A DNA stretch of 64,000 nt, taken from contig WGBG01000180.1 in the NCBI GenBank assembly GCA_015494395.1, positions 10,329-74,328 on the forward strand. The letters run 5' to 3'. This document shows, piece after piece, positions 13,604-51,599 of this stretch. Position 1 is the first letter of the stretch. Each line of letters begins with the position of its first letter. This DNA comes from Deltaproteobacteria bacterium. Its GTDB lineage: Bacteria; Desulfobacterota; Dissulfuribacteria; Dissulfuribacterales; QOAL01. Under the pieces are notes generated by a model. The model was given only the letters and a program-made list of their open reading frames with translations, had not been told where the DNA came from and made no database searches. The position numbers and the translations under genes are program-made.

Positions 13604-13612
13604 ATAAAGAAA

Positions 13613-13751
13613 CCTAGATTGAGCGATTGTCGGATATGCAGTAAATACGGCAATCCCGAAGGGTTTCAAAACTGGAAAGCTATAATTGACATAACTCCCT
13701 TTAATTTCATTGAAAAAACATTTTTTCAGATTTTGAAACGCTCAATCTAGG
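13613..13751 (+). mobile_element. family B MITE, short form (B1)
   Basis: Perfect 13-bp terminal inverted repeat CCTAGATTGAGCG / CGCTCAATCTAGG. Flanked by the 5-bp direct repeat AGAAA (13608..13612 and 13752..13756). Confidence 0.8.
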
Positions 13752-13782
13752 AGAAAGTTTTTTGATACGAATGCGTTTCAGG

Positions 13783-14667
13783 TCAATAACCCCTGTAATC
13801 ATAAGAAGGGCAGTATCGTGCCGGTACGCGGTTCAGTGCAATACCAAGAAGGTTTGTATGGCTTATCTCCTCCATTGCCTTGTCCAGTTCTTCCTCCTTG
13901 CTCTTGCAGCTTCTTACCACCATAAGGGCAGTATCTGCATAACGGGCAAGATAAAGACCGTCTGAAAAGAGATTAAGCGGCGGGCTGTCAAATATAACCA
14001 GCCGTTCAGGATAGCGGTTTTTTATGTCAGTGACAAAATCATGCATTGCCGGACTACCAAGGAGGTCCGCCGGGTAGTCTGAAGGGGTTCCGGCAGTAAG
14101 AATGGTGAGCCTTGGTATTCCGGGGTTTATAAGCAGCTCGTTTAGAGGTGTGCCCTTTGTGAGATGTTCAAACAATCCTGCCTCTGCCTCAATTCCCATA
14201 TATTTATGAATGGCAGGCTTGCGCATGTCTGCGTCAACCAGAAGGACTGTCCTGGATGTCTCCCTGGCAATACTTATGGCGAGGTTTATCGCAGTTATGG
14301 TCTTTCCCTCCTTGGGGCCAGGGCTGCATACCATAATGGATCTGGCATCATTTTCCTTCATGGCCGTCTCAATTTTCACCCTGAGCAGGTTGTACTGCTC
14401 TATAATTATTTCCGGACAATCTGTAGTGAGTATCCCGTGCTTTTCAAGCACCGCCTTGTCAGCCGGGGTTACCCTGGTCTGGGTGTACACAGGCTCTATG
14501 TGTCCCGGTCTTGCAGCACATGCTGTTTTGACCTTGGGTGTATCTTCAGCCTGTGTTTTCTGAGGCGCAGGTGTAACTGGTGTGGTTTCTTTAGTAGTTT
14601 CTGAAGCAGGGGAGTCCTCGCCGCGCGCCTGCTGTGCCATCTCCAGTGCCTTTTCTAGCTTGCTCAT
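13783..14667 (-). CDS. EPS/PEP-CTERM locus tyrosine autokinase (BY-kinase, CpsD/EpsG-like)
   Basis: Walker A (SPGPKEGKT), Walker A'-like VLLVDADMRKP, and a Tyr-rich C-terminal tail (YCPSYDYRGY). Confidence 0.8.
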   Translation of the reverse strand: MSKLEKALEMAQQARGEDSPASETTKETTPVTPAPQKTQAEDTPKVKTACAARPGHIEPVYTQTRVTPADKAVLEKHGILTTDCPEIIIEQYNLLRVKIETAMKENDARSIMVCSPGPKEGKTITAINLAISIARETSRTVLLVDADMRKPAIHKYMGIEAEAGLFEHLTKGTPLNELLINPGIPRLTILTAGTPSDYPADLLGSPAMHDFVTDIKNRYPERLVIFDSPPLNLFSDGLYLARYADTALMVVRSCKSKEEELDKAMEEISHTNLLGIALNRVPARYCPSYDYRGY

Positions 14668-14668
14668 T

Positions 14669-16300
14669 TTATTTTTTCCCTTTTACTTCGTCTGCATTCA
14701 ATATGGAAACCAGAGGTGACCGGCCAGTTATGCGTTTAATGTCTGCCGGTGTGCGAATGGTGGTGTCTGCCATTTCAACAATGGAGGCGATACCAATTCC
14801 TATGCCAATACCAAGCACCAAACCAATCAGAATAATCGCAATGCGGTTGGGTTTGACCGGTTTTTCAGGAAGCTGAGGAGGATCAATTACAGTGAATTTT
14901 TCACTTGCCTGGCGTTGTTCAAGTGTCTGCCCCTGCTTGGCCTCCATGAGTTTTGCAGTTATCTGCTTGTATTCTGCCTGCGCAGTCTCATAATCCCTGT
15001 TAAGTTCCCGGTATTCCCGCTCCACCTCAGGCATCTTTTCAAGCCGCTTTATGTATTCTTCCCATTTTTGGGTAAGGTCCTTCTTCCTTGCCTCAAGTCC
15101 TGCCAGTTCGATCTTGGCTGCCTTGATCTGTGTCTGAAGGTTGATGTAAGCCGGATTGTCCGGTTTGCCCACATAGGTTGAGCTTGAGGATGCCGAAGCA
15201 GGAAGAGATGCAATTTTTTTCTTAAGCTCGCTAATCTCCTGCTTGAGTTTTACAATGTCCGGATGTTTGTCTTTCAGGTCCGCGGATTTTTTCTTGAGGT
15301 CTTCCTCTTTGAGTTTCAGAAGGTCAATAAGCTCCTGCCTGTTCTGGGTATTTCCGACTTCCTTCTCAAGATTTGCAATTTCCTGCCTCAATTTGATCAG
15401 GTCAGGATGCCTGGGAGACAGGTTCGCCTCCATGCTTATCTCCTGGCTCCTCAGCATCTTTAGCTTTTGTACCGGATCGGTAATAATCTGGCCGGTAGGA
15501 CCCTGTACTGTGATGTCAGGAGACACTGTGGCAAGCTGTCCCTGAAGATAGACAAGGCGGTTCTTTGCCTGTCTGATCTGTGAGTCAATATCGTCAATCT
15601 GCTGCCGTAGCTGCCGTTCTGTCTGGAGGTTCAGCCCCATGAGTTCAGGCAGCTCAGTAATATGCTTTTGCTTGAATGCAGCAATTTTTGTCTCAAGCTC
15701 CTGTGTGCGTTTGCGGTAAACCTTTGCCTGGTCTTCAAGGAAGCTGGTGGCTGTCTGGGCAAGCTCTTCCCTCATCTTGAGGTTGTGTTCAAGGAAGAGA
15801 GAGGTAAGTCTGTTTGTTACCTGCATGACCTTCCTCGGGTCTGTGCCCTCAAAGGAGACTGTAAAGGCAACATTAACCGTAACTGCCCGACCACTTCTTC
15901 TGTCTGGTACTTCCGCACTGATCATCTCAACAGAGATGTCATCGCGCATCTTGTCAATAATTTCCTCTGTGGTGAGTTTTTCGCGTTCTTCCGGGTAGAG
16001 GTTAAAATCCTTGATAATTTTGAGAAGTACCTGTCTGCTAAGAATCTGTGCGCTGATTGCCTTGATGCGTTCTTCTGCAAAACCGGTAACAGTAGTACGA
16101 ACCAGGTCTTGGGGAACCTGCTGTGATTCAATGAGTATGGTGGATGATGAGCGGTAAACCGGCGGAAGGAGATAGGCTATGGCAACGGCTATGCCAACGC
16201 AGATGAAAAGCGGAAGCAGAATGTGCCATTTTCGCCTGTAAAGAAACTGTTTATAATCATCAAGAGTGGAAAAAGCTTCCTGGTTTTGTTCCTGTTTCAT
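14669..16300 (-). CDS. polysaccharide chain-length determinant protein (Wzz/PCP, PEP-CTERM locus subfamily)
   Basis: N- and C-terminal TM helices flank a long coiled-coil periplasmic region. The gene lies immediately upstream of the BY-kinase. Confidence 0.8.
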   Translation of the reverse strand: MKQEQNQEAFSTLDDYKQFLYRRKWHILLPLFICVGIAVAIAYLLPPVYRSSSTILIESQQVPQDLVRTTVTGFAEERIKAISAQILSRQVLLKIIKDFNLYPEEREKLTTEEIIDKMRDDISVEMISAEVPDRRSGRAVTVNVAFTVSFEGTDPRKVMQVTNRLTSLFLEHNLKMREELAQTATSFLEDQAKVYRKRTQELETKIAAFKQKHITELPELMGLNLQTERQLRQQIDDIDSQIRQAKNRLVYLQGQLATVSPDITVQGPTGQIITDPVQKLKMLRSQEISMEANLSPRHPDLIKLRQEIANLEKEVGNTQNRQELIDLLKLKEEDLKKKSADLKDKHPDIVKLKQEISELKKKIASLPASASSSSTYVGKPDNPAYINLQTQIKAAKIELAGLEARKKDLTQKWEEYIKRLEKMPEVEREYRELNRDYETAQAEYKQITAKLMEAKQGQTLEQRQASEKFTVIDPPQLPEKPVKPNRIAIILIGLVLGIGIGIGIASIVEMADTTIRTPADIKRITGRSPLVSILNADEVKGKK

Positions 16301-16331
16301 GATATGGATCCCTTGAACTATAAATGCTTAT

Positions 16332-17591
16332 TTAAAAGTTTAGGTGAAGATTGAAGTCCTTGATGTCTATCCTGAACATGATCCTGTTACGGTCCCTGTT
16401 GTTGTTATCATGTTCATTGTCATCAATATATTGATAGCTGTACTGGATGCCAACATCAATGTACCGGGTCAGTTGATATGTAAGGGTTGGAAAAACCGAG
16501 TACGTGTAGTAATCCTGGTCGTAGGTGAGGTTCTGGGACTTTATGTGGGATATAGCACCCCTGATTCTGCTTCTTAGCCTTTCTGTAAGGCGCCAGTTAA
16601 AAACAGTTGTCAGGTAGGAGCTTACCACAGGCTCTCCATAACTGCTGGGGGTGACTCTACGTTTGAAGTCTGCGTCTATATCTCCTCTGTCAAACAGCCA
16701 TTTCAGTTCAGCCTCGGCCACCCATCCCCAGTAGTGGTCATTTTGAGTTTCCGTGCGTGTATGAAAAAGGTAGTCTGTTCCTGTCCAGATAATTTCATCC
16801 ACCACAACAATATCTGTTTTTGCATCTGTGTAGTTGACCCCCCCAAGGGCCTTGACATACAGGCGTTCTGTGAAATTCCGTTCAAGGCCGAACATCAGGT
16901 CTGCACTGCGGTAGTCCCCTGTGTCAAAATTCATCTTGCCGATGTCAGGGCGTATAAAGAGCCTGGTCTTCTGGTCTGAAAACAGGTATGAGTAGTTTAT
17001 GTAAAAATAGAGGGTGTCATAATCCACGCTGCCGTGATGGTATTTGCCCCAGTCATAGTCAACCTTGTACCATGGTAATGAGGCAGAAACAGTACTTCTT
17101 TCCGTTAACTTCCACTCCACCTCCGGCGAGGCAGCATATACCAGCCGGTCCTGACGCCGTACAAGCTGTCCGGTTTCTGTGAGGGTCTGATCAAGGGTTG
17201 TGTCATCAGCAAATCTGCCAGTAAAAGAAAATGCCAGCCTTTCTGTCTGCTGTCTTCTGGCTGAAAGGTTAACATCCACGTCAAAGGTGTCCAAATCGTT
17301 TTCTGTGTTGTAATGTTGTCCTTGCCCATTGGTTTTGAGGTCAACCGTGTTTCTGGCATCCTGGTACTTTATATCAATGCCTGGGAGAATTTCATAAATC
17401 CAGTCGTCTATGGGCTTGCGTTTGGTGAAGATGATGTTGTCATCATAGGTCAGGCGGGTGCCAAGGGATGGCCTTATGGTGGTAAGCCCGGCCAGTGATA
17501 TCCGAGATTGGCCTGAAACAATCATAAAGGCAATGAAAAAAATTATTAATGTCTGGCTGGCCAAGTATTCTTTGGTGTAGGAATGGCGCAT
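16332..17591 (-). CDS. PEP-CTERM-associated outer-membrane beta-barrel protein
   Basis: Signal peptide, an alternating aromatic/hydrophilic beta-strand pattern rich in Y/D/T, and a terminal F. It sits between the export gene and the chain-length gene. Confidence 0.6.
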   Translation of the reverse strand: MRHSYTKEYLASQTLIIFFIAFMIVSGQSRISLAGLTTIRPSLGTRLTYDDNIIFTKRKPIDDWIYEILPGIDIKYQDARNTVDLKTNGQGQHYNTENDLDTFDVDVNLSARRQQTERLAFSFTGRFADDTTLDQTLTETGQLVRRQDRLVYAASPEVEWKLTERSTVSASLPWYKVDYDWGKYHHGSVDYDTLYFYINYSYLFSDQKTRLFIRPDIGKMNFDTGDYRSADLMFGLERNFTERLYVKALGGVNYTDAKTDIVVVDEIIWTGTDYLFHTRTETQNDHYWGWVAEAELKWLFDRGDIDADFKRRVTPSSYGEPVVSSYLTTVFNWRLTERLRSRIRGAISHIKSQNLTYDQDYYTYSVFPTLTYQLTRYIDVGIQYSYQYIDDNEHDNNNRDRNRIMFRIDIKDFNLHLNF

Positions 17592-17623
17592 GATTATATC
17601 ATCGTGGTAAAAGTTTAGTAAAA

Positions 17624-17642
17624 TCTAAATTGAGCGATTGTG
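17624..17642 (+). repeat. possible solo left terminus of family B (B2)
   Basis: tctaaattgagcgattgtg resembles the B left end cctagattgagcgattgtc. No right end is present. Confidence 0.3.
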
Positions 17643-17655
17643 AAACATACTCTAA

Positions 17656-18240
17656 TTACGGCACCAGAACAACGTCTCCACTTTGTAGTTCGATATTCTG
17701 TTCCAGATTTTTTCCACTTGCTATGTCATTGTAATCAAAATCTATTTTTGTTTCACCAGATGCAGTGTGACGAATTATTACAATGTCACTGAGGTCAGCA
17801 AATGGATTGGTGCCACCTGCCATACTCAGTGCCTGAAGTACGGTAACCCTTGGAAGCACTACGAACATCCCTGGTTTGTTGACCTTGCCTATTACATATA
17901 TCTTGTATGACTCAATTTTGACAGGGGTAACGGTAACAATTGGATTTGACATGTAGTCAGACAGGCGTTTAGTGATTTCCTGTCTTATTTGGGAAACTGA
18001 CTGGCCAGCTGCCTGTATTTCACCTATTAGAGGGAAACTTATGAAACCATCAGGCTGAACAATTATCTGTCTTGTGAGATCCTGATCCTTCCAAACAGAA
18101 ATTTCAATTACATCCCCCGGTCCTAGCTGAAAATCTTCTGTTTTAGAAGCAACTGCAGATGACGATGTTGATAAGACCATGACAGTTGTAAGAAGAAGGA
18201 TAAGTTTCCCAAGCAAGTACGATTGGCTGTTAGTGTTCAT
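17656..18240 (-). CDS. polysaccharide export protein (Wza/EpsE-like, PEP-CTERM-associated)
   Basis: Signal peptide, a poly_export-type block (YQLGPGDVIEISVW), and an SLBB-like C-terminus. A GGAGGG RBS precedes the ATG. Confidence 0.8.
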   Translation of the reverse strand: MNTNSQSYLLGKLILLLTTVMVLSTSSSAVASKTEDFQLGPGDVIEISVWKDQDLTRQIIVQPDGFISFPLIGEIQAAGQSVSQIRQEITKRLSDYMSNPIVTVTPVKIESYKIYVIGKVNKPGMFVVLPRVTVLQALSMAGGTNPFADLSDIVIIRHTASGETKIDFDYNDIASGKNLEQNIELQSGDVVLVP

Positions 18241-18353
18241 TTTATTTAACCCTCCAAGAAGTTAATATTAATGTATAATTATCTTATTATAAATCATAAT
18301 CTTTTTAAAATGAACTTAAAAATCATTCTTATAATTAAAATTCAAAGTAAATC

Positions 18354-18577
18354 GTATCTATTCAGCGTGATAAATGGTCTTGTTTTGGAGTGACTATGAA
18401 GAATCTCGTAGTTTTTATTAGCGAAGCGTAGTCATAAAATCGCGTCTATACTGAGAGTGGAACCAGTGAGTTCCTCGATTTTGGCTTAAGCGAGCCCTGG
18501 AAAATAAGAAATTATTCACTTGAGTGGAAAAACAAGACCTCTTACCAACTTTCGTTATTTATATGCTGAACAATTAC
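18354..18577 (+). mobile_element. family A MITE, full length (A1)
   Basis: Ends are GTATCTATTCAGCG..GGTCTTGTTTT and AAAACAAGACC..GCTGAACAATTAC. Perfect 8-bp target duplication AGTAAATC (18346..18353 and 18578..18585). Confidence 0.85.
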
Positions 18578-18763
18578 AGTAAATCATGGTTAGCTTAACT
18601 GTGACATGATCAAGCGATCATTCATGTTCCCTTTAGATACGAGGTTTGGGGACAGTTCTATTTTTTATACTATCGGAAAATATACTGATGACTGAAATAA
18701 AAATAGCACGAACTAAAATTGATGAGGAAATGGAAGGTAGGGGTGAAGTAAGGTTAGTCTAGA

Positions 18764-18794
18764 TAAAAAAAGGGGGATATAAAATCCCCCTTTT
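18764..18794 (-). terminator. Rho-independent terminator after the PEP-CTERM protein operon
   Basis: AGGGGGAT (18771..18778) pairs with ATCCCCCT (18784..18791) around a 5-nt loop. On the minus strand a 7-T run follows. It lies 20 nt downstream of the stop at 18812. Confidence 0.7.
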
Positions 18795-18811
18795 AGTGTC
18801 ATGTTATGATG

Positions 18812-19390
18812 TTATGCTTTGCTTTTTTTAAATAATGCCAATCCTGCCAGACCAACGCCAAGCAGATAAATCGCTCCCGGAATTGGAACAGGCTGAGCGT
18901 CAACCTGAATCAGAAGGGCATCGAAACCGTACCAGGTTATGGCATGCTGTCCATATGCAGAGTCTAGTCCCAACGCATCGGCTACTGCTGTATTAAAACC
19001 TGGCAGCCAGCAACCACTTACTTTCATCGCAACCTGGAAGCGGTTGGACCCCTCAAGGATAACCCTTGGAGTATTGGGCATCCCTGCACGTCTTATGCCA
19101 AAGTCGTCTCCTACAGGTATTAACTCTATGCTATCCCATACTATGCCAAAGCCTGGATTGCCTTGAAGGATGAAATGGGGGTCGCTGTCCAGCAGGCTGG
19201 CCTGATCATCAAAGATTGCAATTTTGCCGTATATTTCATAGCCAGAATAGTTGATGTCAATGTTACCAGACTCTGTAGGCTCCCAAATGGTCCCTGGGCC
19301 CAATCCACCGCATGACGCAGATGCGCTGACAATCATTCCTGGAATGAGGAACAGCAGAGCTGACAGTACGGCTATACCTTTAATTTTCAT
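18812..19390 (-). CDS. secreted protein with PEP-CTERM-like (VPIPGA variant) C-terminal sorting signal
   Basis: Signal peptide. C-terminus is PVPIPGAIYLLGVGLAGLALFKKSKA (motif, TM helix, basic tail). AAGGAA RBS. Confidence 0.7.
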   Translation of the reverse strand: MKIKGIAVLSALLFLIPGMIVSASASCGGLGPGTIWEPTESGNIDINYSGYEIYGKIAIFDDQASLLDSDPHFILQGNPGFGIVWDSIELIPVGDDFGIRRAGMPNTPRVILEGSNRFQVAMKVSGCWLPGFNTAVADALGLDSAYGQHAITWYGFDALLIQVDAQPVPIPGAIYLLGVGLAGLALFKKSKA

Positions 19391-19422
19391 TTTTGTAATT
19401 CCTTAGTAAATCCATCTGATTC

Positions 19423-20010
19423 TTACTTGGTGGCTCTCTTCCGCGTTATGCCAAACAGCCCCAGAAGACCTGTTCCAAGCAGCCATACTGCGCCTGGGAT
19501 AGGAACGGCATTGCATGAATTTTTCAGGTGCCCTTCCGCGGCCAGATCACGGCCATGCAGCTCGAACACTTCGCTATTCTTTTCTCCCTGTACCATAAAA
19601 CTGTCATATGAGTCATACCATTTAACTTCTGCAGGACCATCAAACTGAAACGACGCTAGGGTTGTATCATCAGTAATGATGGCTGATCCCCATAATGCAG
19701 CCCCAGTGAATGCAACGAAAGGAGTACCTTCAGGTGTAACATCTTCATACATTGGCATTGGGAAAAGAGGGTCAGGAGGAGTTTCAGTCACATTGACTAT
19801 ATTCGCTCCTTCGTATGTAAACGCCAGCGTGTATGCGCCCAGATTCAGTGATTCTCCTGGATCTACACCCATAACAAAATCTACTGAATACTCATCAGCG
19901 CCGGGCATTATGTCAAACCATGAGCTTGCCAGTGCGCTGTTTACAATCATAAAAAGTAATGCTGTTAGAAGTAATGTTCCACTAAAAAATTTGTTAAATA
20001 AGCTTTTCAT
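19423..20010 (-). CDS. secreted protein with PEP-CTERM-like (VPIPGA variant) C-terminal sorting signal
   Basis: Signal peptide (..NSALA). C-terminus is AVPIPGAVWLLGTGLLGLFGITRKRATK. AAGGAGA RBS. Confidence 0.7.
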   Translation of the reverse strand: MKSLFNKFFSGTLLLTALLFMIVNSALASSWFDIMPGADEYSVDFVMGVDPGESLNLGAYTLAFTYEGANIVNVTETPPDPLFPMPMYEDVTPEGTPFVAFTGAALWGSAIITDDTTLASFQFDGPAEVKWYDSYDSFMVQGEKNSEVFELHGRDLAAEGHLKNSCNAVPIPGAVWLLGTGLLGLFGITRKRATK

Positions 20011-20037
20011 GTTAAGTCTCCTTGTTGGATGATATTT

Positions 20038-20805
20038 TTAGTTACAGCTTTGCAACCATTCGGTTTTAAGAATCAGGAAGTCACTCAGGTTGACTGTACC
20101 GTCACCATTTATGTCTCCTTCTTCATAAGTAACGCCTGATTGTAGCCAGTGAGTTTTGATTATCAGGAAGTCACTGAGGTTGACAGTACCGTCACCATTG
20201 ATATCAGCTTGCAGACTGCAAATCACTGCATAGCTTACACCGGAAAAAGTAACTGTAGAGTCCAGATCCTCTCCGGTTGTAGAGGCGAAGTTGACATAGT
20301 TTGGGTATGTCGTACGATCCTTGCCCAAAGATAAAGTTATGCCGAACAGGCTCTCTGGATCACTAACAGGCATGGTATTTGTAGCCCTTGTAAAAGTGAT
20401 TGTGCCAAGGAGAACCTTGTCGCCACTGACACCGGCTGTAGGATCACTGGTGTCAAGCTTTCCCCCGAGGATTACAACAGAATCGGTACTGATTTCAGGG
20501 TCTTTGTATGGATAATTGGTGCTGGAATCACCGAAATACCATACACTCTCATTTTTATCTGCAGATACTATAGATAACTCATCCGGGTTGAATGTTACCT
20601 TGATACATTGACTTACCACTGGCGTATCAAGTTGTGCGTAAATGTTCAGTATAAGTTGATCAGCATCATACGTACCTTCTGCAGAAACCAAGGTGGCGGC
20701 CGATGCAGTAGTTACGGTCCACGCCATCATTAAAGCGGGAATGATTATCGCTTTAAAAAATGACATTATGATTTTTTTTGTAACTTTTAATCCATTCACA
20801 TTCAT
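20038..20805 (-). CDS. secreted protein with two C-terminal dockerin-type repeats
   Basis: Signal peptide. Tandem DINGDGTVNLSDFLI(I/L)KT(H/E)WLQS calcium-binding dockerin repeats at the C-terminus. The N-terminal domain is possibly cohesin-like. Confidence 0.7.
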   Translation of the reverse strand: MNVNGLKVTKKIIMSFFKAIIIPALMMAWTVTTASAATLVSAEGTYDADQLILNIYAQLDTPVVSQCIKVTFNPDELSIVSADKNESVWYFGDSSTNYPYKDPEISTDSVVILGGKLDTSDPTAGVSGDKVLLGTITFTRATNTMPVSDPESLFGITLSLGKDRTTYPNYVNFASTTGEDLDSTVTFSGVSYAVICSLQADINGDGTVNLSDFLIIKTHWLQSGVTYEEGDINGDGTVNLSDFLILKTEWLQSCN

Positions 20806-30700: not shown

Positions 30701-31050
30701 GTGGAAATAGCTCAAAGCTGAAAGCTCAAGGCTCAAAGTAAAAGAAGCCTATTTGCTTCCAGCTTCCGCTTTGGGTTAACTTTCATGTATCTATTCAGCG
30801 TGATAATTGGTCTTGTTTTGGAGTGACTTTGAAGAATTTCGTAGTTTTTCTTGGAGAAGCGCAGCCAGAAAATCGCGTCTGTCTGAGCGAGGCACGAGCG
30901 AGTTTCGCGATTTTGGCGTAGCGAGCCTTAGAAAAACAAGGAATTGTTCTCCGGAACGGAAAAACAAGACCAATTATCAACCTTATAATATCAATACGCT
31001 GAACAGTTACACTTTCATATCATGGGATGACAAACCCCATGTCATGAAAA
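30701..31050 (+). repeat. family C palindromic composite element (C1), interrupted by family A copy A2
   Basis: 30701..30786 matches the left ~90 bp of the intact copy at 49084..49205. 31011..31050 matches its right hairpin (..gatgacaaaccccatgtcatgaaa). Confidence 0.7.
30787..31010 (+). mobile_element. family A MITE, full length (A2)
   Basis: Canonical ends. Perfect 8-bp duplication ACTTTCAT (30779..30786 and 31011..31018), which is sequence belonging to family C. Confidence 0.9.
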
Positions 31051-39001: not shown

Positions 39002-39220
39002 GTAACTGTTCAGCGTACTTAAAAGGTTGGTAAATGCCCTTGTTTTCCGTTCCAGAGAACAATTTCTTGTTTTTCTAAGGCTTGCTTAAGCCAAAATCGC
39101 GAAACTCGCTCGTGCCTCCCTCAGACATACGCGATTTTATGGCTGCGCTTCGCCAAGAAAAACTACGAAATTGTTCAAAGTCACTCCAAAATAAGACCAT
39201 TTACCACGCAGAATAGATAC
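39002..39220 (-). mobile_element. family A MITE, full length (A4)
   Basis: Reverse orientation: GTAACTGTTCAGCG..GGTAAATGCCCTTGTTTT...AAAATAAGACCATTTACCACGCAGAATAGATAC. The flanking 8-mers match at only 5 of 8. Confidence 0.8.
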
Positions 39221-40051: not shown

Positions 40052-41200
40052 TTATGATATCCGTTTTCCGTAAATCCTGTACCGCTTGTACTCCCTTCCC
40101 CCCAGGGATTCTATTATCCTCCTCATGATTGTGTTATCTTCCAGTATCCATGACAGCTCAAGACTCTTTATGCCAAGCTCTCTTACCGCAATGCTTATAT
40201 CACTAAAGAGGTTGTAGGCAAGGGCAGCACCGGTAAGGGTGTCTCTGTATTTCTTTATAACTCCCATGAGAAGAACGCGCCCTGTAGAAGGATGCCTCAC
40301 CTTTAACCTCCAAAGCAGTTTAAGCCACCCGAAGGGCAGCAGCCTTCCATTGAGGTCACAGATGGCTTCATTGATGTTTGGAAGCACCACGATAAATGCA
40401 GCAGGTTCATCATCTATCTCTGCTATTCTTACAAGCCGGTTGTCAGCGATAAATTTCATGGTCTGGCCTATTTCCAGATACTCTTCCCTGGTAAACGGCA
40501 CAAATCCCCAGTTTTCAGACCATGCATCATTGAAAATGCCAAAGATTATATCCATCTCACCGGCAAGTTGTGATCTGTCAATTCCTCTTGTCCGCATGCC
40601 TGTTGCGGTTTTTTCAAGAATACGTGTGATTGCCGGAGGCTGTTCCTGGTCAGTGTCCATTGTGTAGGCAAGAAGGTCCTTTTCTTTTTCATAGCCGCAT
40701 GCTTCAACTGCCTGGGGGTACCACGGTTTTGTATGGGCCATCATCATGGATGGCGGTGTGTCAAAGCCTTCTACAAGCATACCGCACTCCTGATTTATGG
40801 AGAGATTAAACGGTCCCATGACCTTGGTCATTCCCATGTTTTTTAACCAGTCTTCCGCAGTTTTAAGAAGCATGCCCACTGTTTCATCGTTCTTTTCAGC
40901 CTCCAGCATGCCAAAAAAACCTGTGTTTTCACCATAACGGTGGATATAAAGCTCGTCAATTTGAGCACTTATGCGTCCAACAGGCCTTCCTTTCCTGTAG
41001 GCTACCCAGAATTTACATTTGGCATGTCTGAAATATGGATTTTCAGGAGATAGGTGTATTCTCCGCTCTAATTCAAGGGGAGGTATCCACGTGGGATCGT
41101 CCCTGTAAACAGAGTATTGGAGCCTGATAAAATCTGAAAGCAGCCTGGATTTACGTAGATTTGTAATGGGGTTTATTTGCAGGGTTGAGGAGGCTGACAT
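40052..41200 (-). CDS. large GNAT-like acyltransferase of unknown specificity
   Basis: 382 aa. The central and C-terminal regions have an acyl-CoA N-acyltransferase-like pattern (..WVAYRKGRPVGRISAQ.., GFFGMLEA..). The assignment is weak. Confidence 0.45.
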   Translation of the reverse strand: MSASSTLQINPITNLRKSRLLSDFIRLQYSVYRDDPTWIPPLELERRIHLSPENPYFRHAKCKFWVAYRKGRPVGRISAQIDELYIHRYGENTGFFGMLEAEKNDETVGMLLKTAEDWLKNMGMTKVMGPFNLSINQECGMLVEGFDTPPSMMMAHTKPWYPQAVEACGYEKEKDLLAYTMDTDQEQPPAITRILEKTATGMRTRGIDRSQLAGEMDIIFGIFNDAWSENWGFVPFTREEYLEIGQTMKFIADNRLVRIAEIDDEPAAFIVVLPNINEAICDLNGRLLPFGWLKLLWRLKVRHPSTGRVLLMGVIKKYRDTLTGAALAYNLFSDISIAVRELGIKSLELSWILEDNTIMRRIIESLGGREYKRYRIYGKRIS

Positions 41201-41249: not shown

Positions 41250-41457
41250 CCTGGATTGAGCGATTGCCGGATTTGCTACAGATCCGCGAAAGGGGAATTC
41301 CCATAATAGTTGGCTATATGGGAATTCCCCTGACAAAGGAGATGCAGTAAATACGGCAATCCCGAAGGGTTTCAAAATTGGGAAGCTATTATTGACATAA
41401 CTCTTTTTAATATCGGTGAAAAAACAATTTTCCATATTTTGAAACGCTCAATCTAGG
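41250..41457 (+). mobile_element. family B MITE, long variant (B3)
   Basis: TIR is CCTGGATTGAGCG / CGCTCAATCTAGG. 5-bp duplication TTAAA (41245..41249 and 41458..41462). It carries ~70 extra bp, including the hairpin GGGGAATTCCCA-N15-TGGGAATTCCCC (41292..41330). Confidence 0.8.
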
Positions 41458-41468
41458 TTAAAAATGCC

Positions 41469-41547
41469 TTAACTGTTAAGCGTACTAATAATAAAGGTTG
41501 GTAAATGGTCTTGTTTTTACGCTCCGGTTACCACGCTGAATAGATAC
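41469..41547 (-). mobile_element. family A MITE, short hairpin form (A5)
   Basis: ttAACTGTTAAGCG..GGTAAATGGTCTTGTTTTT..CCACGCTGAATAGATAC. The 8-bp flanks AAAATGCC / AAAATACC match at 7 of 8. Confidence 0.7.
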
Positions 41548-41734: not shown

Positions 41735-42502
41735 TTGAAGGCAATAATATTAAGCGCAGGGCAGGGGAAACGCCTTTTGCCCATGACTGCTGACATGCCC
41801 AAGTGTATGCTTGATGTTGGCAGTGGTACTATTCTTGAGTGGCAGATCAATACGCTTCTTGGTATGGGCGTTAATGAAATAGTAATCGTCACCGGTTACG
41901 GGGCATCCAAGGTGGACAGGCTGATATCAGAAACCTATGCTGATAATGGAGTAAGGACTCTTTATAATCCTCATTATGCCACTTCTGACAACCTTGTGAG
42001 CTGCTGGTGGGCAAGCAGTGAGATGGATAAGGATTTCTTGCTGCTTAATGGAGACACGCTGTTTGAGCCTGCTGTGGCCAGTACCCTTATGAACTGTCCG
42101 CCTTCTTCAATAACCATGGCAATAAATGTCAAGGATAACTATGACAGCGATGACATGAAGGTTGTGGTTGATAAGGGGCGGCTTTTACATGTTGGCAAGC
42201 AGCTGCCGGTTGAAAGTGTTGACGGGGAATCAATTGGTTTTATCCGTTTTCTGGGAGAGGGGCCAGATATTTTCAAAAAGGCACTTGCCGAAGCTGTTGA
42301 GAACCCTTCGAGTAAAGGAAGATGGTACCTGTCTGTAATTGACAAGATTGCAGGAGAAATGCCAATAAGTACATGTCCAATCACCGGTTATTCATGGTGT
42401 GAAGTGGATTATCCTGAGGACCTTGATAATGCACGCAGGATGATTGCATCGCTTTCTGTTGCCAAAAAAACTGAGGGCAAGGGCATTTGCCAACCTTATT
42501 AA
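41735..42502 (+). CDS. NTP-transferase domain protein (LicC/IPCT-like cytidylyltransferase candidate)
   Basis: TTG start with GGAG 8 nt upstream. N-terminus is (M)KAIILSAGQGKRLLPMT. The last codons and the stop lie in a family A end fragment. Confidence 0.7.
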   Translation: MKAIILSAGQGKRLLPMTADMPKCMLDVGSGTILEWQINTLLGMGVNEIVIVTGYGASKVDRLISETYADNGVRTLYNPHYATSDNLVSCWWASSEMDKDFLLLNGDTLFEPAVASTLMNCPPSSITMAINVKDNYDSDDMKVVVDKGRLLHVGKQLPVESVDGESIGFIRFLGEGPDIFKKALAEAVENPSSKGRWYLSVIDKIAGEMPISTCPITGYSWCEVDYPEDLDNARRMIASLSVAKKTEGKGICQPY

Positions 42503-44880: not shown

Positions 44881-47256
44881 TTATCCTATGGCAGAGATCT
44901 TGAACCTCCGCAGTGTCTTTTCCATCTCTCTTGCCTTTTTCTCAAGAGCTTCCATGTCAGCAAGAGCAGTTTCCGCACCTTTGGCGTTATTGATTGCAAT
45001 GGCTGCCATCTGATCCATTATCTGGCGCAGGGCAGCGCTTCGTTCACGTTGCTTGGTTGTCCTGGAGGTAATGCCCTCGGAGTTTGTGATAACCTTGTCA
45101 ACAGTCTCCACCGCTGTCTTGGTGGTAAGGGTACTGGAGTTGGCTGCAGCCGCAATGTCATCACTAAGGGCCATGAGTTTTTTAATGGACTCTTCTGCCT
45201 GTTTCCTTCGTTCTGCCTGGCGGTTGGTCATCTGAACAATAGTGGAGGCAAGGTCTTCAAGTTTTGAGGTTGAGTCAAGGAGTCCCTCAACGGATTCTGC
45301 CTCCTGCTGTGTAACTTCTGAAATCTTGAAGGTAACTTCACTGCCTGATTCAACGGTTTCAACAAGTGTTTCAAGTGCATTTGCACTCTCTGCGGCAAGT
45401 TTCATTCCCTGTTCAACATTTTCAGCACTCTCGGCAATAAGGGTTTCAATCTCCCTGGTAGATTCTGCTGTCCTGTCAGCAAGTTTTCTGATTTCCTCGG
45501 CAACTACCGCGAATCCCCGGCCATGTTCCCCTGCCCTTGCAGCCTCAATTGCAGCGTTTAGAGCCAGCAGGTTTGTCTGTTCAGCAATGTCAGAAATAAG
45601 GTCAACAATATCACGAACCTGTTCGGAACTGGTTGCAATTGCCTCCATACCCTTAACAGTCTGTTCCATTGCCTCTCTGCCTTGGCGGGCACTATCCAGG
45701 GTCTCCTTGGCCTGAACCGCTGCTTTCTGGGACTCATCAGCCATCCTCTGGAGTTTTGAAGCCATATCTTTAAGTGATTCTGCTGTCTCCAGTGCTGCCT
45801 CTGACTGTTTGATAGCCGTAGCCTGAACCTGTTTGGCTGTTTCACCCATGTTGGCAACCGTTCCAGCAGCCCATGATGCTCCTTCCTTGTTCTCGGAAGA
45901 GATTTCGGTGATACGTGTTGCTGTCCTTGCCATATCCTGGATGACCTGGGCTGCATCCCTGGCAAGTTTTGCAGAGGAGTCAGCATGTTCTGCAACTTCC
46001 TGGGCGGTCTGACCCATTATTTCAACCCTTTTCTGGACCTCCTGTGCCCTTTTTGCCTGGGATTCTGCATTTGATGTAATGCTGGAGGCAACCTCGTTAA
46101 CGTGCATGCTTGCCTTTGCAAAATCAGCACTGGTCTGGATGAGTTCACGGAAGGTTGACTGCAATGCATCAAGGAAATGGTTTACTGCCTCTGCCATCCT
46201 TCCAATTTCATCATTGCTGGTTGCTTCAATTCGCCTGGTAAGGTCAAGGTCTTCTGCTGTCTGTTTGAGAAGCTGAGATGTCCTTACAATGGGATTAACA
46301 ACATTGGTGTTGATAAAATGGGCAAGAAGCATAAGAAGGAGGAAGATTATACCGTTGCCGATAAATCCGTGCTGAATCACCCCTTCAAGTGAGGCTGCCA
46401 GGTTTGATTCCGGTATTTCAGCAACTGCAACCCATTCAGGGAGAATTACGTTGGACGCGGCTGATAATTTGTAAAATCCGGCAACAGATTCACCCGAAGA
46501 ACCGATTCCCTCCCTGATTCCTTTTGGCTTTTTTTCAGAGCTGATCCACTTTGCATATGCTCTTCCTGAAAGTGCCTGGTCAGCAGATATGACCACCCTT
46601 CCCATACTGTCTGTGATATAAACTGTTCCCTTTTTTGACTTTATCATATTAAGAGTGCGGCCAAGTACAGAACCAAATGCCTCTGGGGCAATGATTCCCA
46701 GCACGGTTCCTGTTCTGATTCCGTTTTCAAAGACAGGCGCTGAGATACCAAAACCCCTCTCCTGCTTGGTTCCAGGCAGAGTGACAGGGCCTGCAAGTGC
46801 TGCCTGTCCCTTGGAAAGGTCAACAAAGCCCCATTCTGCGGGTTTGAAATTTTTTCCTCTAAGCCTGTTCAACCCGGAGGCAACCGAATTTCCCCATTTG
46901 TCAAGGATTACAAAGGCGGTAAAGTCAGCACTCTGTTTTGCCAGGTCCTGCAGAAAACTGTCCTGGGATATATGATCGCCTGTTGGGGCAAGGGCATTAC
47001 GGGTTACATCCAGCAGGGCGATGGTTTTGACCTCCTGTGCCATTGATTCAATATAGGTCTGGAGATTTACAGCAAGCTGTCTTGCCTCTTCCGCCAGGTT
47101 CTTCTCACCTGTTTTTATCAAAATGTTCCGCTGTGCAAAATATATGTAAGCCTGGACCGCAACAACTGCAGCCATAACTATGGAGATCATAATGAGAACT
47201 TTACTCTGAAGTCTCATGCCTTTAAGAAAACTTATGCCTCCCGTTTTGCCTTTCAT
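44881..47256 (-). CDS. methyl-accepting chemotaxis protein (Cache-like sensor, HAMP, MA domain)
   Basis: TM helix, periplasmic domain, TM helix, HAMP, then the conserved signalling hairpin (..[35 protein letters not shown]..). Confidence 0.9.
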
Positions 47257-47750
47257 TCCGTAGCCTCCTTAAGATGAGGGAAATTTTTATTTATGTGTTT
47301 CAAAAGTGCTGGTATATCCAGCAGCGGAGTCCTGCTGCCTTCGAATATGGTGATCCCTGAAATGTATTCAGGCGGGATTCCGTGTTTTTCGTCGTCGTCA
47401 GCAGTGGTAAATGATTCAGGCAGAACTGAATGGACTGCAGAAACATTATCAACTGCAAGCCCAAGGGGTGCATCCCTGGTGTCAAGGAGTATGATGCGTG
47501 AGTGATTTTGACTTTTTCTGCCAAAGCAGAGAGCAGATGTGTCCAGAACTGAAATAACCTCTCCCCTTATGTTTACCACCCCTGAGACAAAATCGTTGGC
47601 ATTTGGCACCTGGGTCAGTCTGTGTGCCGTAACTATCTCTCTGATCCAGCTTAGTTCCGAGCCTGCAGTAACACCTGATATGGTAAAAAACAGTATAGGT
47701 ACTGCATAACCTGGCATTTTGCTGCTGGATTCCTGTGCTGACTGTATCAT
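47253..47750 (-). CDS. cheW: chemotaxis coupling protein CheW
   Basis: 165 aa CheW-like domain (..[13 protein letters not shown]..). ATGA overlap with the mcp gene. Confidence 0.85.
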
Positions 47751-47909
47751 AGGCTGCTCACGTGTCAGATTTGGCTAACAAACGCATGATGAGGTTTTTA
47801 ACAAGGTCGTCTTGTGTTTAGAGGTTTTGTTAAACAAGCCAAAATTTCAACCAGATAGACTGAAGTAACTGTTTGCCGCAGGCTACAGCTTGAATTTCAT
47901 TATTATTAC

Positions 47910-47936
47910 TTATCGTCCCAGCCACAGGAAACTTTA
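47910..47936 (-). promoter_or_regulatory. sigma-28 (FliA)-type promoter upstream of cheW-mcp
   Basis: The minus strand reads TAAA-N15-GACGATAA, against the consensus TAAA-N15-GCCGATAA (one mismatch, exact spacing). It lies ~160 nt upstream of the cheW ATG. Confidence 0.6.
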
Positions 47937-48106
47937 GCTCATCAGGTGTTTTATATATCTTCCTGCTTTTTAACAAAAAGACAGGATGATTTTGTTTGTC
48001 ACTGATTCTCTGTTCAGGTGCGGTGAAAAAATCCTTTCCTGTACCTCTGTGTTACACTAAGATTAATCATGGCCTTAATGTTTTATCAGCGTGCAGGAGG
48101 CGGCTT

Positions 48107-48541
48107 ATGAGATCATTCATAAGATTGATTTTTGTGTTTACCGTGGCTGCAATGTTGTTTTCTGTTCTGGGAGGGTGTGCCTCCTCAAAACGGCCTGTCC
48201 TGTATCCTAACCGGCACCTTGCCCAGGTTGGGCAGATGCAGGCACAGCGTGATATTGATGCATGTATTGCCCTTGCAGAGTCAAGCGGTGTAAGCCGTCA
48301 TAAAGACGGTGAAATTTTCAAGAAGAGTGTAACCGGGAGCGCAGTAGGGGCTGCCGGTGCCGGAACTGCTGCTTTGATACTCGGACGTGATACAGACTAT
48401 ATACTTGCTGGTGCTGCTGGTGGTGCTGCGGCAGGTGCAGTCAAAGGCGGAATAGATTCAACAGATATGAACCCGCTGTTTATGAACTTCGTACAGAGAT
48501 GCCTCAGGGAGAAAGGCTATGAGGTTATAGGATGGGAGTAA
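48107..48541 (+). CDS. glycine-zipper lipoprotein
   Basis: ATG 48107 is preceded by AGGAGG. The signal/lipobox is ..VLGGCASS. Gly/Ala zipper: GSAVGAAGAGTAAL..AGAAGGAAAGAVKGG. Confidence 0.6.
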   Translation: MRSFIRLIFVFTVAAMLFSVLGGCASSKRPVLYPNRHLAQVGQMQAQRDIDACIALAESSGVSRHKDGEIFKKSVTGSAVGAAGAGTAALILGRDTDYILAGAAGGAAAGAVKGGIDSTDMNPLFMNFVQRCLREKGYEVIGWE

Positions 48542-48550
48542 GGTGTCAGG

Positions 48551-49081
48551 TTGAAAGATTATCCGGATTTTCCAGAGCTCGTGATTGAAGATGAACAGTT
48601 TTACCGAGATGAGTGTGTTGAGCTTTCAAGGTTCTTTACCCAGCACCAAAAAGAACTGGCAGAGATACATGCCCTTGGCAGGCGCATAATAAAATTTTAT
48701 CAGGTTCTTGAGCCCTTTTTTCACGATTTTACCGAGTCGGTATGTCACTGCTGTGCTGTGCCCTGTTGCGTAAACAGGCATGGCTTTCCTGATTTTGAGG
48801 ACCTGGTTCTGTTTCTTGCAATGGGCCAGGGCCTGCCAGACTATAATTTTAATGTTATAGACACTGACAAATGCCAGTTCCTTGGCCCAAACGGCTGCAG
48901 CCTTCCCAGGCAGGCAAGGTCATACCGTTGTACATGGTACTTCTGTGACCATGTTCTGGATGAGTTTGAGCATATTAACAGTAAAAGATTCCACCGTTTT
49001 GATGTTGAGCTTGGAAGGCTTGGCAGGTGCCGAAGCGTGCTTCTTGAACGGTTCAGTGAATTATGGTTTATCAGTCATTAA
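48551..49081 (+). CDS. Cys-rich hypothetical protein (YkgJ/UPF0153-like cluster-binding candidate)
   Basis: TTG start. Cysteine clusters are CHCCAVPCCVN, CQFLGPNGC and CTWYFC. The family assignment is uncertain. Confidence 0.4.
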   Translation: MKDYPDFPELVIEDEQFYRDECVELSRFFTQHQKELAEIHALGRRIIKFYQVLEPFFHDFTESVCHCCAVPCCVNRHGFPDFEDLVLFLAMGQGLPDYNFNVIDTDKCQFLGPNGCSLPRQARSYRCTWYFCDHVLDEFEHINSKRFHRFDVELGRLGRCRSVLLERFSELWFISH

Positions 49082-49083
49082 GC

Positions 49084-49205
49084 GTGAAAATAGCTCAAGG
49101 CTCAAAGTTGAAAGTCAAAGAAACCATGTTGGTTTTCAGCTTCCGACTTTGAGCTTTCAGATAACTTTCATGTCAGGGGGTGACAAACCCCATGTCATGA
49201 AAGTT
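49084..49205 (+). repeat. family C palindromic composite element, intact reference copy (C2)
   Basis: It contains two hairpin modules (gctcaaggctcaaagttgaaag..cttccgactttgagctttcag and tttcatgtcagggggtgacaaaccccatgtcatgaaa). It fills the gap between two convergent genes. Confidence 0.7.
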
Positions 49206-49215
49206 AAGGCAGGCA

Positions 49216-50538
49216 TCAGGTAATGTGGTGTCCGGCAATAAAGTCCCGTACGGTCTCAAACAGGAATTTTTCTCCAAGATAGAAGAGAATCATTGAGATA
49301 ATAGCTGCTGCAGGAACTGTAATAAACCAGGACCCAAATATCTTTTTGGTTACAGTTCTGTCAATTCCACCCAGTCCCCTGGCAAGTCCGATTCCGAGTA
49401 TTGCGCCAACAAGTGTATGGGTCGTGGAGATGGGAAGTTTCATCCTGGTGCATATCAGGACAACTGTTGTGGCGGCAATGTCTGCTGCGACGCCGCGGGA
49501 CGGGGTGATTTCTGTAATTTTGGTTCCAACCGTATCCATCACCCTGTAACCATAGGTTGCAAGGCCGATTACAATACCCGTGCCTCCAAGGGCAAGAACC
49601 CAGAATGGCACGCCAACCTTCATGGCAATATTGCCGGTTTCGGCAATGTTGACTATTGCAGCAAGGGGGCCTACGGCATTGGCAACATCATTGGCGCCGT
49701 GGGCAAATGCAACTGAGCACGAGCTGATGATAACCAGAGGGGTAAAAACCTTTTCTACCTCCTCAAGCTGCTGTGAAATTCTAAGTTTTTCCTTGCCATG
49801 AAGGTAGCTGTTGGCAAGTTTCCGGGAGATCACCGCAGCAGTGATGCTGATAATGCCGGTAATAACAAAGGACATATAGCCGGACAGCCACTCAATTTCG
49901 CCTATTACATGTTTAAGCCCTTTGTATATGGTGGCAAGGGTTACAACGGCAAACACCAGGAAGACTATGTATGGAATATATTTTTTCGCTGCAACAACCG
50001 GCCTGTTATGACCAAGGATCACACGGGAGATAAATTTGAACAGTACAAATGCCATTATCCCCCCTGCTACTGGAGAAATAAACCAGCTTGCCACAATCTG
50101 TCCCATCTTTCCCCAGTTTACAGCATCGTGTCCTGCAGCAATAATGCCGAATCCCGCCACAGCACCAACTATTGAGTGGGTAGTAGATACAGGCATTCCT
50201 GCCCATGACGAGTAGTTAAGCCAGATTGCAGCAGAAAACAGTGAAACTGTCATGCCAATGACCATCAGAGCTGCTGCATCAGTGGGAGAAATGCCTGGAA
50301 GGGCGGAGAGGATTGAAGGGTCAACTATTCCCTTTCTCACGGTATCTGTAACATGAGCGCCAACCAGTACAGCACCCGCAAATTCACATAACCCTGCAAG
50401 AATAACTGCTTTTTTGATTGAAAGCGCCCGGGAGCCAACTGCATCTGCCATTGAGTTGGCAACGTCATTAGCGCCAATATTCCACGCCATGTACAGGCCC
50501 AGGATGGCTGCCAGCCCGATAATTATCACAATATCCAT
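49216..50538 (-). CDS. inorganic phosphate transporter, PiT family
   Basis: Duplicated GANDVAN motifs (IGANDVANSM, HGANDVANAV), multi-TM. GGAGGGG RBS. Confidence 0.9.
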   Translation of the reverse strand: MDIVIIIGLAAILGLYMAWNIGANDVANSMADAVGSRALSIKKAVILAGLCEFAGAVLVGAHVTDTVRKGIVDPSILSALPGISPTDAAALMVIGMTVSLFSAAIWLNYSSWAGMPVSTTHSIVGAVAGFGIIAAGHDAVNWGKMGQIVASWFISPVAGGIMAFVLFKFISRVILGHNRPVVAAKKYIPYIVFLVFAVVTLATIYKGLKHVIGEIEWLSGYMSFVITGIISITAAVISRKLANSYLHGKEKLRISQQLEEVEKVFTPLVIISSCSVAFAHGANDVANAVGPLAAIVNIAETGNIAMKVGVPFWVLALGGTGIVIGLATYGYRVMDTVGTKITEITPSRGVAADIAATTVVLICTRMKLPISTTHTLVGAILGIGLARGLGGIDRTVTKKIFGSWFITVPAAAIISMILFYLGEKFLFETVRDFIAGHHIT

Positions 50539-50612
50539 ATCCCCTCCGGCTGTTATCTTTTGTGGCTTATAAATCTGTTTGGTACTTGTTGATTGCAGAA
50601 AATCCCCACCAG

Positions 50613-51284
50613 TTATCTGACAATCATTGTCCTGAGCATGTCACCGGCGTTTTCAGCCTCATTGGCAATGGCACTCAAGGCAAGGAGCATTTTTTCATAG
50701 AACATGATGGTTATTGGATCAAGTTCGTTTTCAAGCGAGTAAATGTCCTTGCTGAGTTGGCGCGCTATTCTGTCAGCCTTCCACTCTTCTTCGCCGATTC
50801 CCTCAAGAAACTCAAGTACCCTTTGTGCCTCAGCGCCGCCAAAGGATACCTCGGCCAGGTTCTCAAGCTCCACTGCGGCTGTAAGCAGTGTGCCTGTGAC
50901 CTGCAGCACCTGGTTAACCAGGTTGCGGAACTTGTCCTGCAGCTCATGATGCACCCTGGTCTTTCTGATGGTGAGAATGATGGAGAAATCCTCAACATAA
51001 TCTGCTATCTTGTCCTGGCGGTTCAGGAAGTTGTCAAGCTCTATACGTTCAACAGGCAGGAAGTAGCGTCTGGGAAGCTGGACACGAATGGCATGTTTCA
51101 GGCGGTCTGCTTCGTACTCGAGTTTTGATACCTTGTTCTGCAGTGCTTCAAGCTCGTCATACTGTTCATTTATTACTGCATCAATAAGTGGCTGGATAAG
51201 CTCGATGCATTCATGAACCTTTTTTGTATGTTCCACCAAGGGTCCAAAGGGAGATTTGCCAAAAAGATCCTGAATAAGTCCCAT
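50613..51284 (-). CDS. DUF47/TIGR00153-family (PhoU-like) phosphate transport accessory protein
   Basis: 223-aa helical protein upstream of the PiT gene, a typical pairing. GGAGG RBS. Confidence 0.8.
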   Translation of the reverse strand: MGLIQDLFGKSPFGPLVEHTKKVHECIELIQPLIDAVINEQYDELEALQNKVSKLEYEADRLKHAIRVQLPRRYFLPVERIELDNFLNRQDKIADYVEDFSIILTIRKTRVHHELQDKFRNLVNQVLQVTGTLLTAAVELENLAEVSFGGAEAQRVLEFLEGIGEEEWKADRIARQLSKDIYSLENELDPITIMFYEKMLLALSAIANEAENAGDMLRTMIVR

Positions 51285-51432
51285 GTCTGCCTCCTGAGCG
51301 ATGGTTGTTTGTTAAAAAATATTAGGTTAACCTGCCTATATTTTCAGGTTCTTATACCATGTCCTGATTGCAAGCCTTAAATACGCTGTTTCCCCTCTAA
51401 ATGCAAGCTATTTTGTTTAGAAATGACACTGT

Positions 51433-51571
51433 CCTGAATTGAGCGTTTCAAAAGTTTGAAGAAATGATTTTATACGATATTAAAAGGACTTAAATTTATC
51501 ATACTCTTAAACTTTTGAAACCCTTCGGGATTGCCGGATCTGCAGCAAATCCGACAATCGCTAAATCCAGG
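51433..51571 (-). mobile_element. family B MITE, short form (B4)
   Basis: Reverse orientation with ends CCTGAATTGAGCG / CGCTAAATCCAGG. 5-bp duplication ACTGT (51428..51432 and 51572..51576). Confidence 0.8.
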
Positions 51572-51599
51572 ACTGTGTCAGTAAACCAAAAATATTTAA

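Follow-up and report, generated by a model that had tools for sequence, protein, structure and literature searches.

The window analysed here, a 64,000-nucleotide stretch of contig WGBG01000180.1, contains a short dispersed repeat that we call family B. Family B is very probably a MITE (miniature inverted-repeat transposable element), non-autonomous and moved in trans by a transposase of the IS1380 family of insertion sequences (ISs). The original prediction, made from the letters of the window, had already called it a MITE, and this holds: the element is small and non-coding, has terminal inverted repeats, lies dispersed between genes, carries 5-bp target duplications at 20 of 21 complete copies, and shares its termini with ISs. 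To that prediction we add the IS family, a wider distribution, the polarity between long and short forms, and one further remnant.

The window holds three intact family-B copies and three remnants (Table 1). The intact copies lie exactly where they had been predicted. Their 13-bp terminal inverted repeat, CCTRGATTGAGCG, is matched at 13/13 positions in copy 1, 12/13 in copy 2, and 11/13 in copy 3; beyond these 13 nt the ends are no longer complementary. With their flanks, the copies read AGAAA-CCTAGATTGAGCG...CGCTCAATCTAGG-AGAAA (copy 1), TTAAA-CCTGGATTGAGCG...CGCTCAATCTAGG-TTAAA (copy 2), and ACTGT-CCTGAATTGAGCG...CGCTAAATCCAGG-ACTGT (copy 3), so that all three perfect 5-bp direct repeats named in the prediction are present. 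The copies can be aligned over their whole length; copy 1 is 90% identical to copy 2 over 120 nt and 79% identical to copy 3. Copy 2 was the best of the window matches to a profile built from 19 aligned copies (nhmmer E value, 2.8e-69). Family B has no coding capacity; the sole open reading frame (ORF) that overlaps any copy is one mechanical 68-aa frame.

The degenerate copy suspected beside copy 1 is real. In addition to its profile match, it is 68% identical over 171 columns to positions 31 to 199 of the long-form consensus, with a score of 115 against a shuffle maximum of 53. The possible solo end at 17624-17642 fared less clearly. Of 17 positions compared with the left end, 16 agree, and the identity over 43 nt is 77%, for which we estimate a chance probability of about 4e-4 in the window, but it is too short to be reported by nhmmer at an E value of ≤1 with the 19-copy profile. 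It is plausibly a real, if short, left-end remnant. The third remnant, a heavily degenerate left half that the prediction did not contain, sits between the ORFs at 9050-9643 and 10034-12229.

Family B is not confined to the window. We scanned species-representative genomes with a 16-nt end pattern. This pattern was too short, and most of the 112 matches listed are chance hits in unrelated taxa. The copy numbers derived from the scan are lower bounds. At least about 25 contigs of one fragmented metagenome-assembled genome (MAG) matched (JALWJV01, "Deltaproteobacteria bacterium M17_metabat1_scaf2bin.112"), as did a few contigs of other deltaproteobacterial MAGs, and the MAG contigs carry family B at 80 to 94% identity. 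At least 18 further complete copies were found in these related uncultured "Deltaproteobacteria" MAGs, mostly in JALWJV01. The host is an uncultured marine-sediment "Deltaproteobacteria" (Desulfobacterota-like) lineage. A cyanobacterial origin, as for a Nezha-like MITE, was considered and dropped, since the genome scan placed the family in these MAGs instead. A distant blastn search with the 208-bp form found no match in a plasmid collection. Short-read (Logan) contigs of the same strain, 99.9 to 100% identical, end inside copies 1, 2, and 3, as expected if family B is repeated many times in that genome.

Together, the 3 window copies and the 18 copies on MAG contigs give 21 complete copies, which were collected as pairs of ends and then oriented. 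A perfect 5-bp direct repeat flanks 20 of them; in the last copy, 4 of the 5 flanking positions agree. The duplications are therefore not a peculiarity of the window, a possibility that the original prediction had set against itself. The 20 perfect duplications comprise 19 different sequences, with TTAAA found at two copies. When the left 5-mer was instead compared with right-flank 5-mers at offsets of 1 to 6, there were 0 to 1 matches. The duplications are 79% A+T against a background of 52%; T is preferred as their first base and A as their fifth. Duplications so fresh and so different from one another indicate recent transposition.

These data also dispose of the idea that the resemblances are chance matches among low-complexity intergenic sequences. 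The DNA around the copies is indeed AT-rich. However, the copies are 79 to 100% identical over 139 to 208 nt, with nhmmer E values down to 2.8e-69, and the 13-mer end motif occurs 7 times in the window with up to two mismatches, where 2.3 occurrences are expected and none of 100 shuffles reaches 7. By our own estimate, about 0.02 perfect 5-bp duplications would be expected where 20 are seen. We give chance practically no weight and rejected it on these grounds.

The link to the IS1380 family comes from the ends. The terminal sequence CCTRRATTGAGCGATT is common to family B and to full-length ISs of 1.55 to 1.8 kb, so the IS with matching termini that the prediction had proposed to look for does exist. 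The protein encoded by one of these ISs, L110 (L numbers designate retrieved loci), scores 232 bits against the NCBIfam model NF033539 and contains the Pfam domain DDE_Tnp_1_4 (PF13701). Transposases of elements with these ends score 232, 237, and 223 bits, all above the cutoff of 180, which places the elements in a clade of the IS1380 family. A metagenome scan with an alignment of three such transposases returned 80 loci. Both ends are present, 1.55 to 1.8 kb apart, in 47 of these loci; their left ends have the consensus CCTAAnnTGAGCGATT and their right ends CCTAAATTGAGCGATTC. Four of the 47 (L116, L123, L161, and L170) are flanked by perfect 5-bp duplications, as is L004. The left end of family B, CCTRGATTGAGCGATTG, matches the left ends of L004, L110, and L116 over 16 to 17 nt.

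Two plasmid-borne relatives belong to the IS1380 family as well: an element of a Solidesulfovibrio plasmid (223 bits against NF033539) and one of a Klebsiella plasmid (323 bits). The Klebsiella element starts with CCTAGATTCTACGT / CCTAGATTCTACGTCAGTACTTC, which we take to be the left end of ISEcp1, and its first 8 nt are identical to the family-B end. IS1380-family elements have ends that begin with CC, as those of family B do, and duplicate 4 to 5 bp of target DNA. ISEcp1 makes 5-bp duplications (PMC2887853). Of the named family members (ISEcp1, ISPme1, IS1247, and IS1380), family B thus shares with ISEcp1 the first 8 nt and the duplication length. With L110, L116, and L004, which together with L117 to L195 represent the environmental clade with CCTAAnnTGAGCGATT ends, it shares ends identical over 13 to 16 nt; AT-rich targets are a further likeness to the family. 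It differs from IS1380 elements in having no transposase gene, in its length (139 to 208 bp against 1.55 to 1.8 kb), and in its unrelated interior.

Because the same ends bound elements that encode an IS1380-family DDE transposase, we propose that this enzyme family mobilises family B in trans. A different transposase that duplicates about 5 bp could in principle have done so, such as one serving the Tn3-derived TIMEs or the IS1634, IS701, ISH3, or IS2-type IS3 elements. A 5-bp duplication is not unique to IS1380 among IS families, and no partner IS was found in the host, both of which count for such an enzyme. Against it, the 13 to 16 terminal nucleotides are identical to those of many full-length elements whose sole ORF is an IS1380-family transposase, and no other type of transposase adjoins these ends in any fetched locus. 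Tn3-type ends start with GGGG and are about 38 bp long, and such ends are absent from family B. TIMEs are non-autonomous and make 5-bp target duplications, as family B does, but family B has IS1380-type ends of 13 to 16 bp that begin with CCT and whose complementarity stops after 13 nt; we therefore did not assign it to the TIMEs. Mobilisation by one of these other enzymes seems very improbable to us.

Several observations weigh against mobilisation by an IS1380-family transposase. The right end of family B, CCTRRATTGAGCGTTTC, departs from the IS consensus after nt 13 (GCGTTTC in place of GCGATTC). Most of the metagenomic full-length IS copies have no perfect duplication, for which we assume that short-contig assembly has given them chimeric flanks. 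A tblastn search with the L110 transposase found no IS1380-family transposase in the window or in the approximately 25 fetched contigs of the related MAG. None of the 80 sampled elements of the clade shares more than the terminal 16 to 21 nt with family B, and no partner IS emerged among them. A nucleotide-precise empty site was not found either; exact-protein look-ups of the flanking genes returned same-strain contigs only, and these all carry the copies; copies 2 and 3 occupy the same sites there and show 100% identity. Finally, the nearest relatives, with 91 to 92% identity in PhoU_div, lack family B in the TauE-PhoU_div gap, but the DNA of this gap is not alignable with that of the window. 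The single-5-mer junctions predicted for empty sites at the three loci are listed in Table 1.

We suggest the following mechanism. The 13- to 16-bp ends of family B (CCTRGATTGAGCG[A/T]TT) would be the recognition ends of an IS1380-family clade. A DDE transposase of that family, supplied by a full-length IS elsewhere in the genome, would bind both ends in trans and insert the element into AT-rich intergenic DNA through a staggered 5-bp cut, the repair of which would leave the 5-bp duplications. The 208-bp form is the main one; deletion produced 139-bp forms at least twice, and at least one of these has gone on transposing. Hairpin potential, a general property of MITEs, could matter for transposition or for RNA in read-through transcripts. 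Whether the reaction is cut-and-paste or replicative is unsettled even for autonomous IS1380 members (PMC9330008).

The end sequences themselves fit recognition by one protein. The two subfamilies of family B differ at position 4 of the inverted repeat, and they do so at both ends together (A:T in 10 copies and G:C in 6), as expected if a single protein reads both ends.

The short forms are derived from the long form. The original prediction described a long variant with about 70 extra bp. The long form in the window has 208 bp and exceeds the short one by 69 bp; it is the prevalent form, and the 69 bp are not added DNA. It is seen in 16 of the 19 aligned copies and measures 207 to 217 bp in all but one of these; the 208-bp form is probably ancestral. 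The 69-bp segment found only in long copies is bounded by the imperfect direct repeats GGATTTGCTRCAGATCCGCGA and GGAGATGCAGTAAATACGGCA, spaced 69 bp apart. It includes a hairpin built from GGGAATTCCC palindromes, whose stem has 14 to 15 bp rather than the 12 bp first given.

Copies 1 and 3 each lack exactly 69 bp, but their junctions differ. In copy 1, the sequence passes from repeat 1 to repeat 2 after GGAT (GGAT/ATGCAGTAAATACGGCA), whereas copy 3 retains repeat 1 as far as ATCCG and continues with GCAATC. Their subfamilies differ as well: L058, L096, and L029 are 94% identical to copy 1, whereas the long copies L018, L056, and L108 are 93 to 94% identical to copy 3. The short forms are therefore independent deletion derivatives, in which the 69 bp between internal direct repeats were lost on at least two occasions. 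The short form of the copy-1 type has transposed since then, as L058 shows, a 139-bp copy that lies elsewhere and has the duplication TAAGA.

A further derivative of 101 bp, L059 738-838, has "right-type" ends on both sides (CCTAGATTGAGCGTTTCAAAA...) and the duplication GATAA. The internal sequence CCCGAAGGGTTTCAAAA of family B resembles a decayed copy of such an end, which suggests that family B may itself combine a left module with a small palindromic MITE.

The predicted fold is branched, as the original prediction had proposed from internal inverted repeats, and both folding and the pairing across 19 copies bear this out. The long form consists of the paired ends, a helix of GATTGYCG with CGGCAATC around two hairpins, a CCC-GAA-GGG hairpin, and a helix of GTTTCAAAA with TTTTGAAAC. 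The plus strand reaches a minimum free energy of -90 kcal/mol and the minus strand one of -82 kcal/mol, with z scores of about -9.6 on both. Over the 19 copies, 92% of the cells are paired, against 25 to 50% in slid controls; the figure is 98% for helix 1 (the terminal repeats) and 97% for helix 3 (the GGGAATTCCC hairpin). Changes on both sides were seen at 13 pairs, 5 of them in helix 3, against 6.2 pairs in column shuffles. These values point weakly to a constraint on hairpin formation, because the copies are related, the fold tested was derived from one aligned sequence, and stable hairpins are typical of MITEs. Indeed, stable predicted hairpins are general among MITEs (PMC10969869, PMC3184786).

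The same stability, on both strands and with covariation in helix 3, is what one would cite for a structured RNA or DNA hairpin with a host function, for example in mRNA stabilisation or processing or as a protein-binding site, whose transposon-like ends would be incidental or ancient. Yet no part of the window matched an Rfam family at the gathering score, and relaxed thresholds gave only sub-threshold matches to eukaryotic families; these searches thus do not bear out the known regulatory RNA that the original prediction had named as a counter-explanation. Consensus scans found no promoter- or terminator-like site lying wholly inside the copies scanned, and the one weak promoter-like match, which overlaps the right end of copy 2, is no more than shuffles produce. 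The copies are found in both orientations and beside genes that have nothing in common, their fresh and differing duplications show recent transposition, and they decay freely, as in the remnants at 9769-9892 and 13452-13603. The excess of two-sided changes, moreover, was measured against shuffles that do not correct for kinship. We regard a host-function hairpin as a poor explanation, with little chance of being right, and retain a MITE moved by an IS1380-family transposase.

Structurally and functionally, family B is a standard bacterial MITE, an ordinary selfish element. It resembles Chunjie of Geobacter uraniireducens, Nezha of Anabaena/Nostoc, the Correia elements of Neisseria, and QMITE of Coxiella in being short, AT-rich, intergenic, and multi-copy, with inverted repeats, target duplications, stable predicted hairpins, size variants, and decayed copies (PMC3184786, PMC10969869). 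Its ends and duplication length differ from theirs. Chunjie, the deltaproteobacterial MITE among them, was considered as a relative and set aside, as it has 21-bp inverted repeats and 9-bp duplications. A MITE that shares only its inverted repeats with its partner is called "type II" (PMC10969869), and to judge from the sequences compared here, family B would be type II relative to its known partners.

Family B also recalls the transposition units of ISEcp1 and ISPme1 ("transposable modules") in its presumed dependence on an IS1380-family transposase, an enzyme that in those units recognises short and even imperfect end sequences (PMC9330008). Those units, however, consist of an IS plus adjacent DNA up to a surrogate right end, whereas family B has two dedicated ends and no IS. 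With family B, the IS1380 family would gain non-autonomous derivatives. How this family transposes is still poorly understood, and one of its members, ISEcp1, spreads blaCTX-M genes. Assemblies of uncultured sediment Desulfobacterota-like bacteria break up at family B, a repeat that can now be given a precise label and a likely mobilising enzyme family.

Family B may not be alone in this. Small elements of 60 to 189 bp with the same 16-nt ends, CCTRRATTGAGCGATT, and with interiors unrelated to family B were found in a Cyclobacteriaceae MAG (JALSJD01) and at other loci (Table 1), most of them with perfect 5-bp duplications. They appear to represent further, independent families of MITEs from the same IS1380 clade, hosted by other phyla. 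Since unrelated interiors go with the same ends and with 5-bp duplications, the ends alone appear to be enough for mobilisation. By comparison, natural mini-elements that share only 13- to 16-nt ends would define the minimal end for this transposase clade.

A bolder reading is that family B and these elements of Bacteroidota, Syntrophobacteraceae, and other MAGs are the first recognised IS1380 MITEs, that 13 to 16 nt of end sequence suffice across phyla, and that the covarying hairpins of family B are possibly selected, through transposition or an RNA-level effect on neighbouring operons. We put this forward as a speculation that is rather unlikely to hold in full. In the searchable literature, we found no paper linking IS1380 to MITEs, and the 2024 MITE review is not among the papers that mention IS1380. 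If true, the sufficiency of 13 to 16 nt would bear on how ISEcp1 chooses surrogate ends when it mobilises resistance genes.

One candidate full-length IS was rejected. In a Desulfobacterales MAG (CAZQCK01), the locus L088 664-2136 has two identical CCTGAATTGAGCG ends in inverted orientation, 1,473 bp apart, but it encloses an ordinary membrane-protein gene (437 aa) and has no 5-bp duplication. The stop codon of this gene lies right at the end sequence. The locus could represent a pair of decayed solo ends, or else a gene with an end on either side.

Table 1. Coordinates of family-B copies, related elements, and other repeats (window positions unless a locus is named)
Feature	Position	Strand	Remarks
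Copy 1, intact short form	13613-13751	+	139 bp; subfamily 1; inverted repeats 13613-13625 and 13739-13751
Copy 1 duplication AGAAA	13608-13612 and 13752-13756		
Copy 2, intact long form	41250-41457	+	208 bp; subfamily 1; inverted repeats 41250-41262 and 41445-41457
Copy 2 duplication TTAAA	41245-41249 and 41458-41462		
Copy 3, intact short form	51433-51571	-	139 bp; subfamily 2; inverted repeats 51433-51445 and 51559-51571
Copy 3 duplication ACTGT	51428-51432 and 51572-51576		
Degenerate long-form copy without left end	13452-13603	+	nhmmer E 9.6e-18 for 13459-13595
Probable solo left end or truncated remnant	17624-17663	+	TCTAAATTGAGCGATTGTG...ACGGCA; left-end positions matched within 17625-17641
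Heavily degenerate left-half remnant	9769-9892	-	Profile positions 3-122; nhmmer E 5.1e-8; intergenic
Segment present in long form only	41269-41337	+	69 bp; includes hairpin GGGGAATTCCCATA...TATGGGAATTCCCC (about 41291-41331)
Predicted empty-site junctions, single 5-mer, three loci			...GATAAAGAAA/GTTTTTTG...; ...AAAGTTTAAA/AATGCC...; ...ATGACACTGT/GTCAGT...
Same-strain contig breaks	L113 end; L197, L198, and L202 starts		In copies 1, 3, and 2, respectively
Full-length IS	L110 161-1706		1546 bp; single 474-aa ORF
Full-length IS	L116		1552 bp; duplication TCTGA
Full-length IS	L004 1368-3133		1766 bp; duplication AGCTA; frameshifted ORF
Small elements, Cyclobacteriaceae MAG JALSJD01	L008 3714-3875; L100 7169-7278; L102 2458-2640; L082 5177-5365		
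Small element, Roseivirgaceae	L030 53-112		60 bp
Small element, Syntrophobacteraceae	L026 1108-1247		
Small element	L107 1107-1257		
Family A copies	18343-18552; 30776-31011; 39025-39204; 55336-55538; 57586-57822; 58858-59061; 61979-62156		Also 41496-41536

All neighbours of family B in the window are Pfam-supported genes, and the copies occupy the gaps between them. Copy 1 lies between the stop of a CbiA/AAA_31 gene (13783-14667, minus strand) and the degenerate copy, which in turn adjoins the start codon of an AAA_22 gene (12138-13451, minus strand). Copies 2 and 3 each separate divergent genes: copy 2 stands between a GNAT gene (40052-41200, minus strand) and an NTP_transferase gene (41735-42502, plus strand), and copy 3 between PhoU_div (50613-51284, minus strand) and TauE (51600-52364, plus strand). 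The solo end lies where 64 bp separate the Poly_export gene from the BBP2_2 porin gene. No open frame of ≥120 aa contains any of the window and MAG copies, which are dispersed and found in both orientations.

A single co-directional cluster of the exopolysaccharide-export type (12138-18240) has copy 1, the degenerate copy, and the solo end in its gaps; it comprises genes for Poly_export/SLBB, a BBP2_2 porin, Wzz/GNVR, a CbiA-like ATPase, and an AAA_22 ATPase. Read-through transcripts of this cluster would carry family-B hairpins. At the copy-3 locus, a relative (GCA_053991135.1, L203 1960-2460) has a TauE-PhoU_div gap of 640 bp in which a different repeat of about 170 bp (CACCTGAARTRCAGAAGCAATTGACMAAGGCGG...), with no relation to family B, occurs twice.

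A second repeat, family A, with ends around GGTAAATGGTCTTGTTTT, far outnumbers family B in the window and also occurs in the MAG JALWJV01. Because its termini are unrelated to those of family B, it is reasonable to suppose, as the original prediction did, that the two families depend on different transposases. Copy 2 of family B has a family-A-like end just 40 bp away. The 319-bp element at L064 315-633 is bounded by family-B ends and flanked by the perfect duplication TATCA, but a family-A repeat replaces most of its interior; this chimeric or nested element may still be open to mobilisation through its family-B ends.

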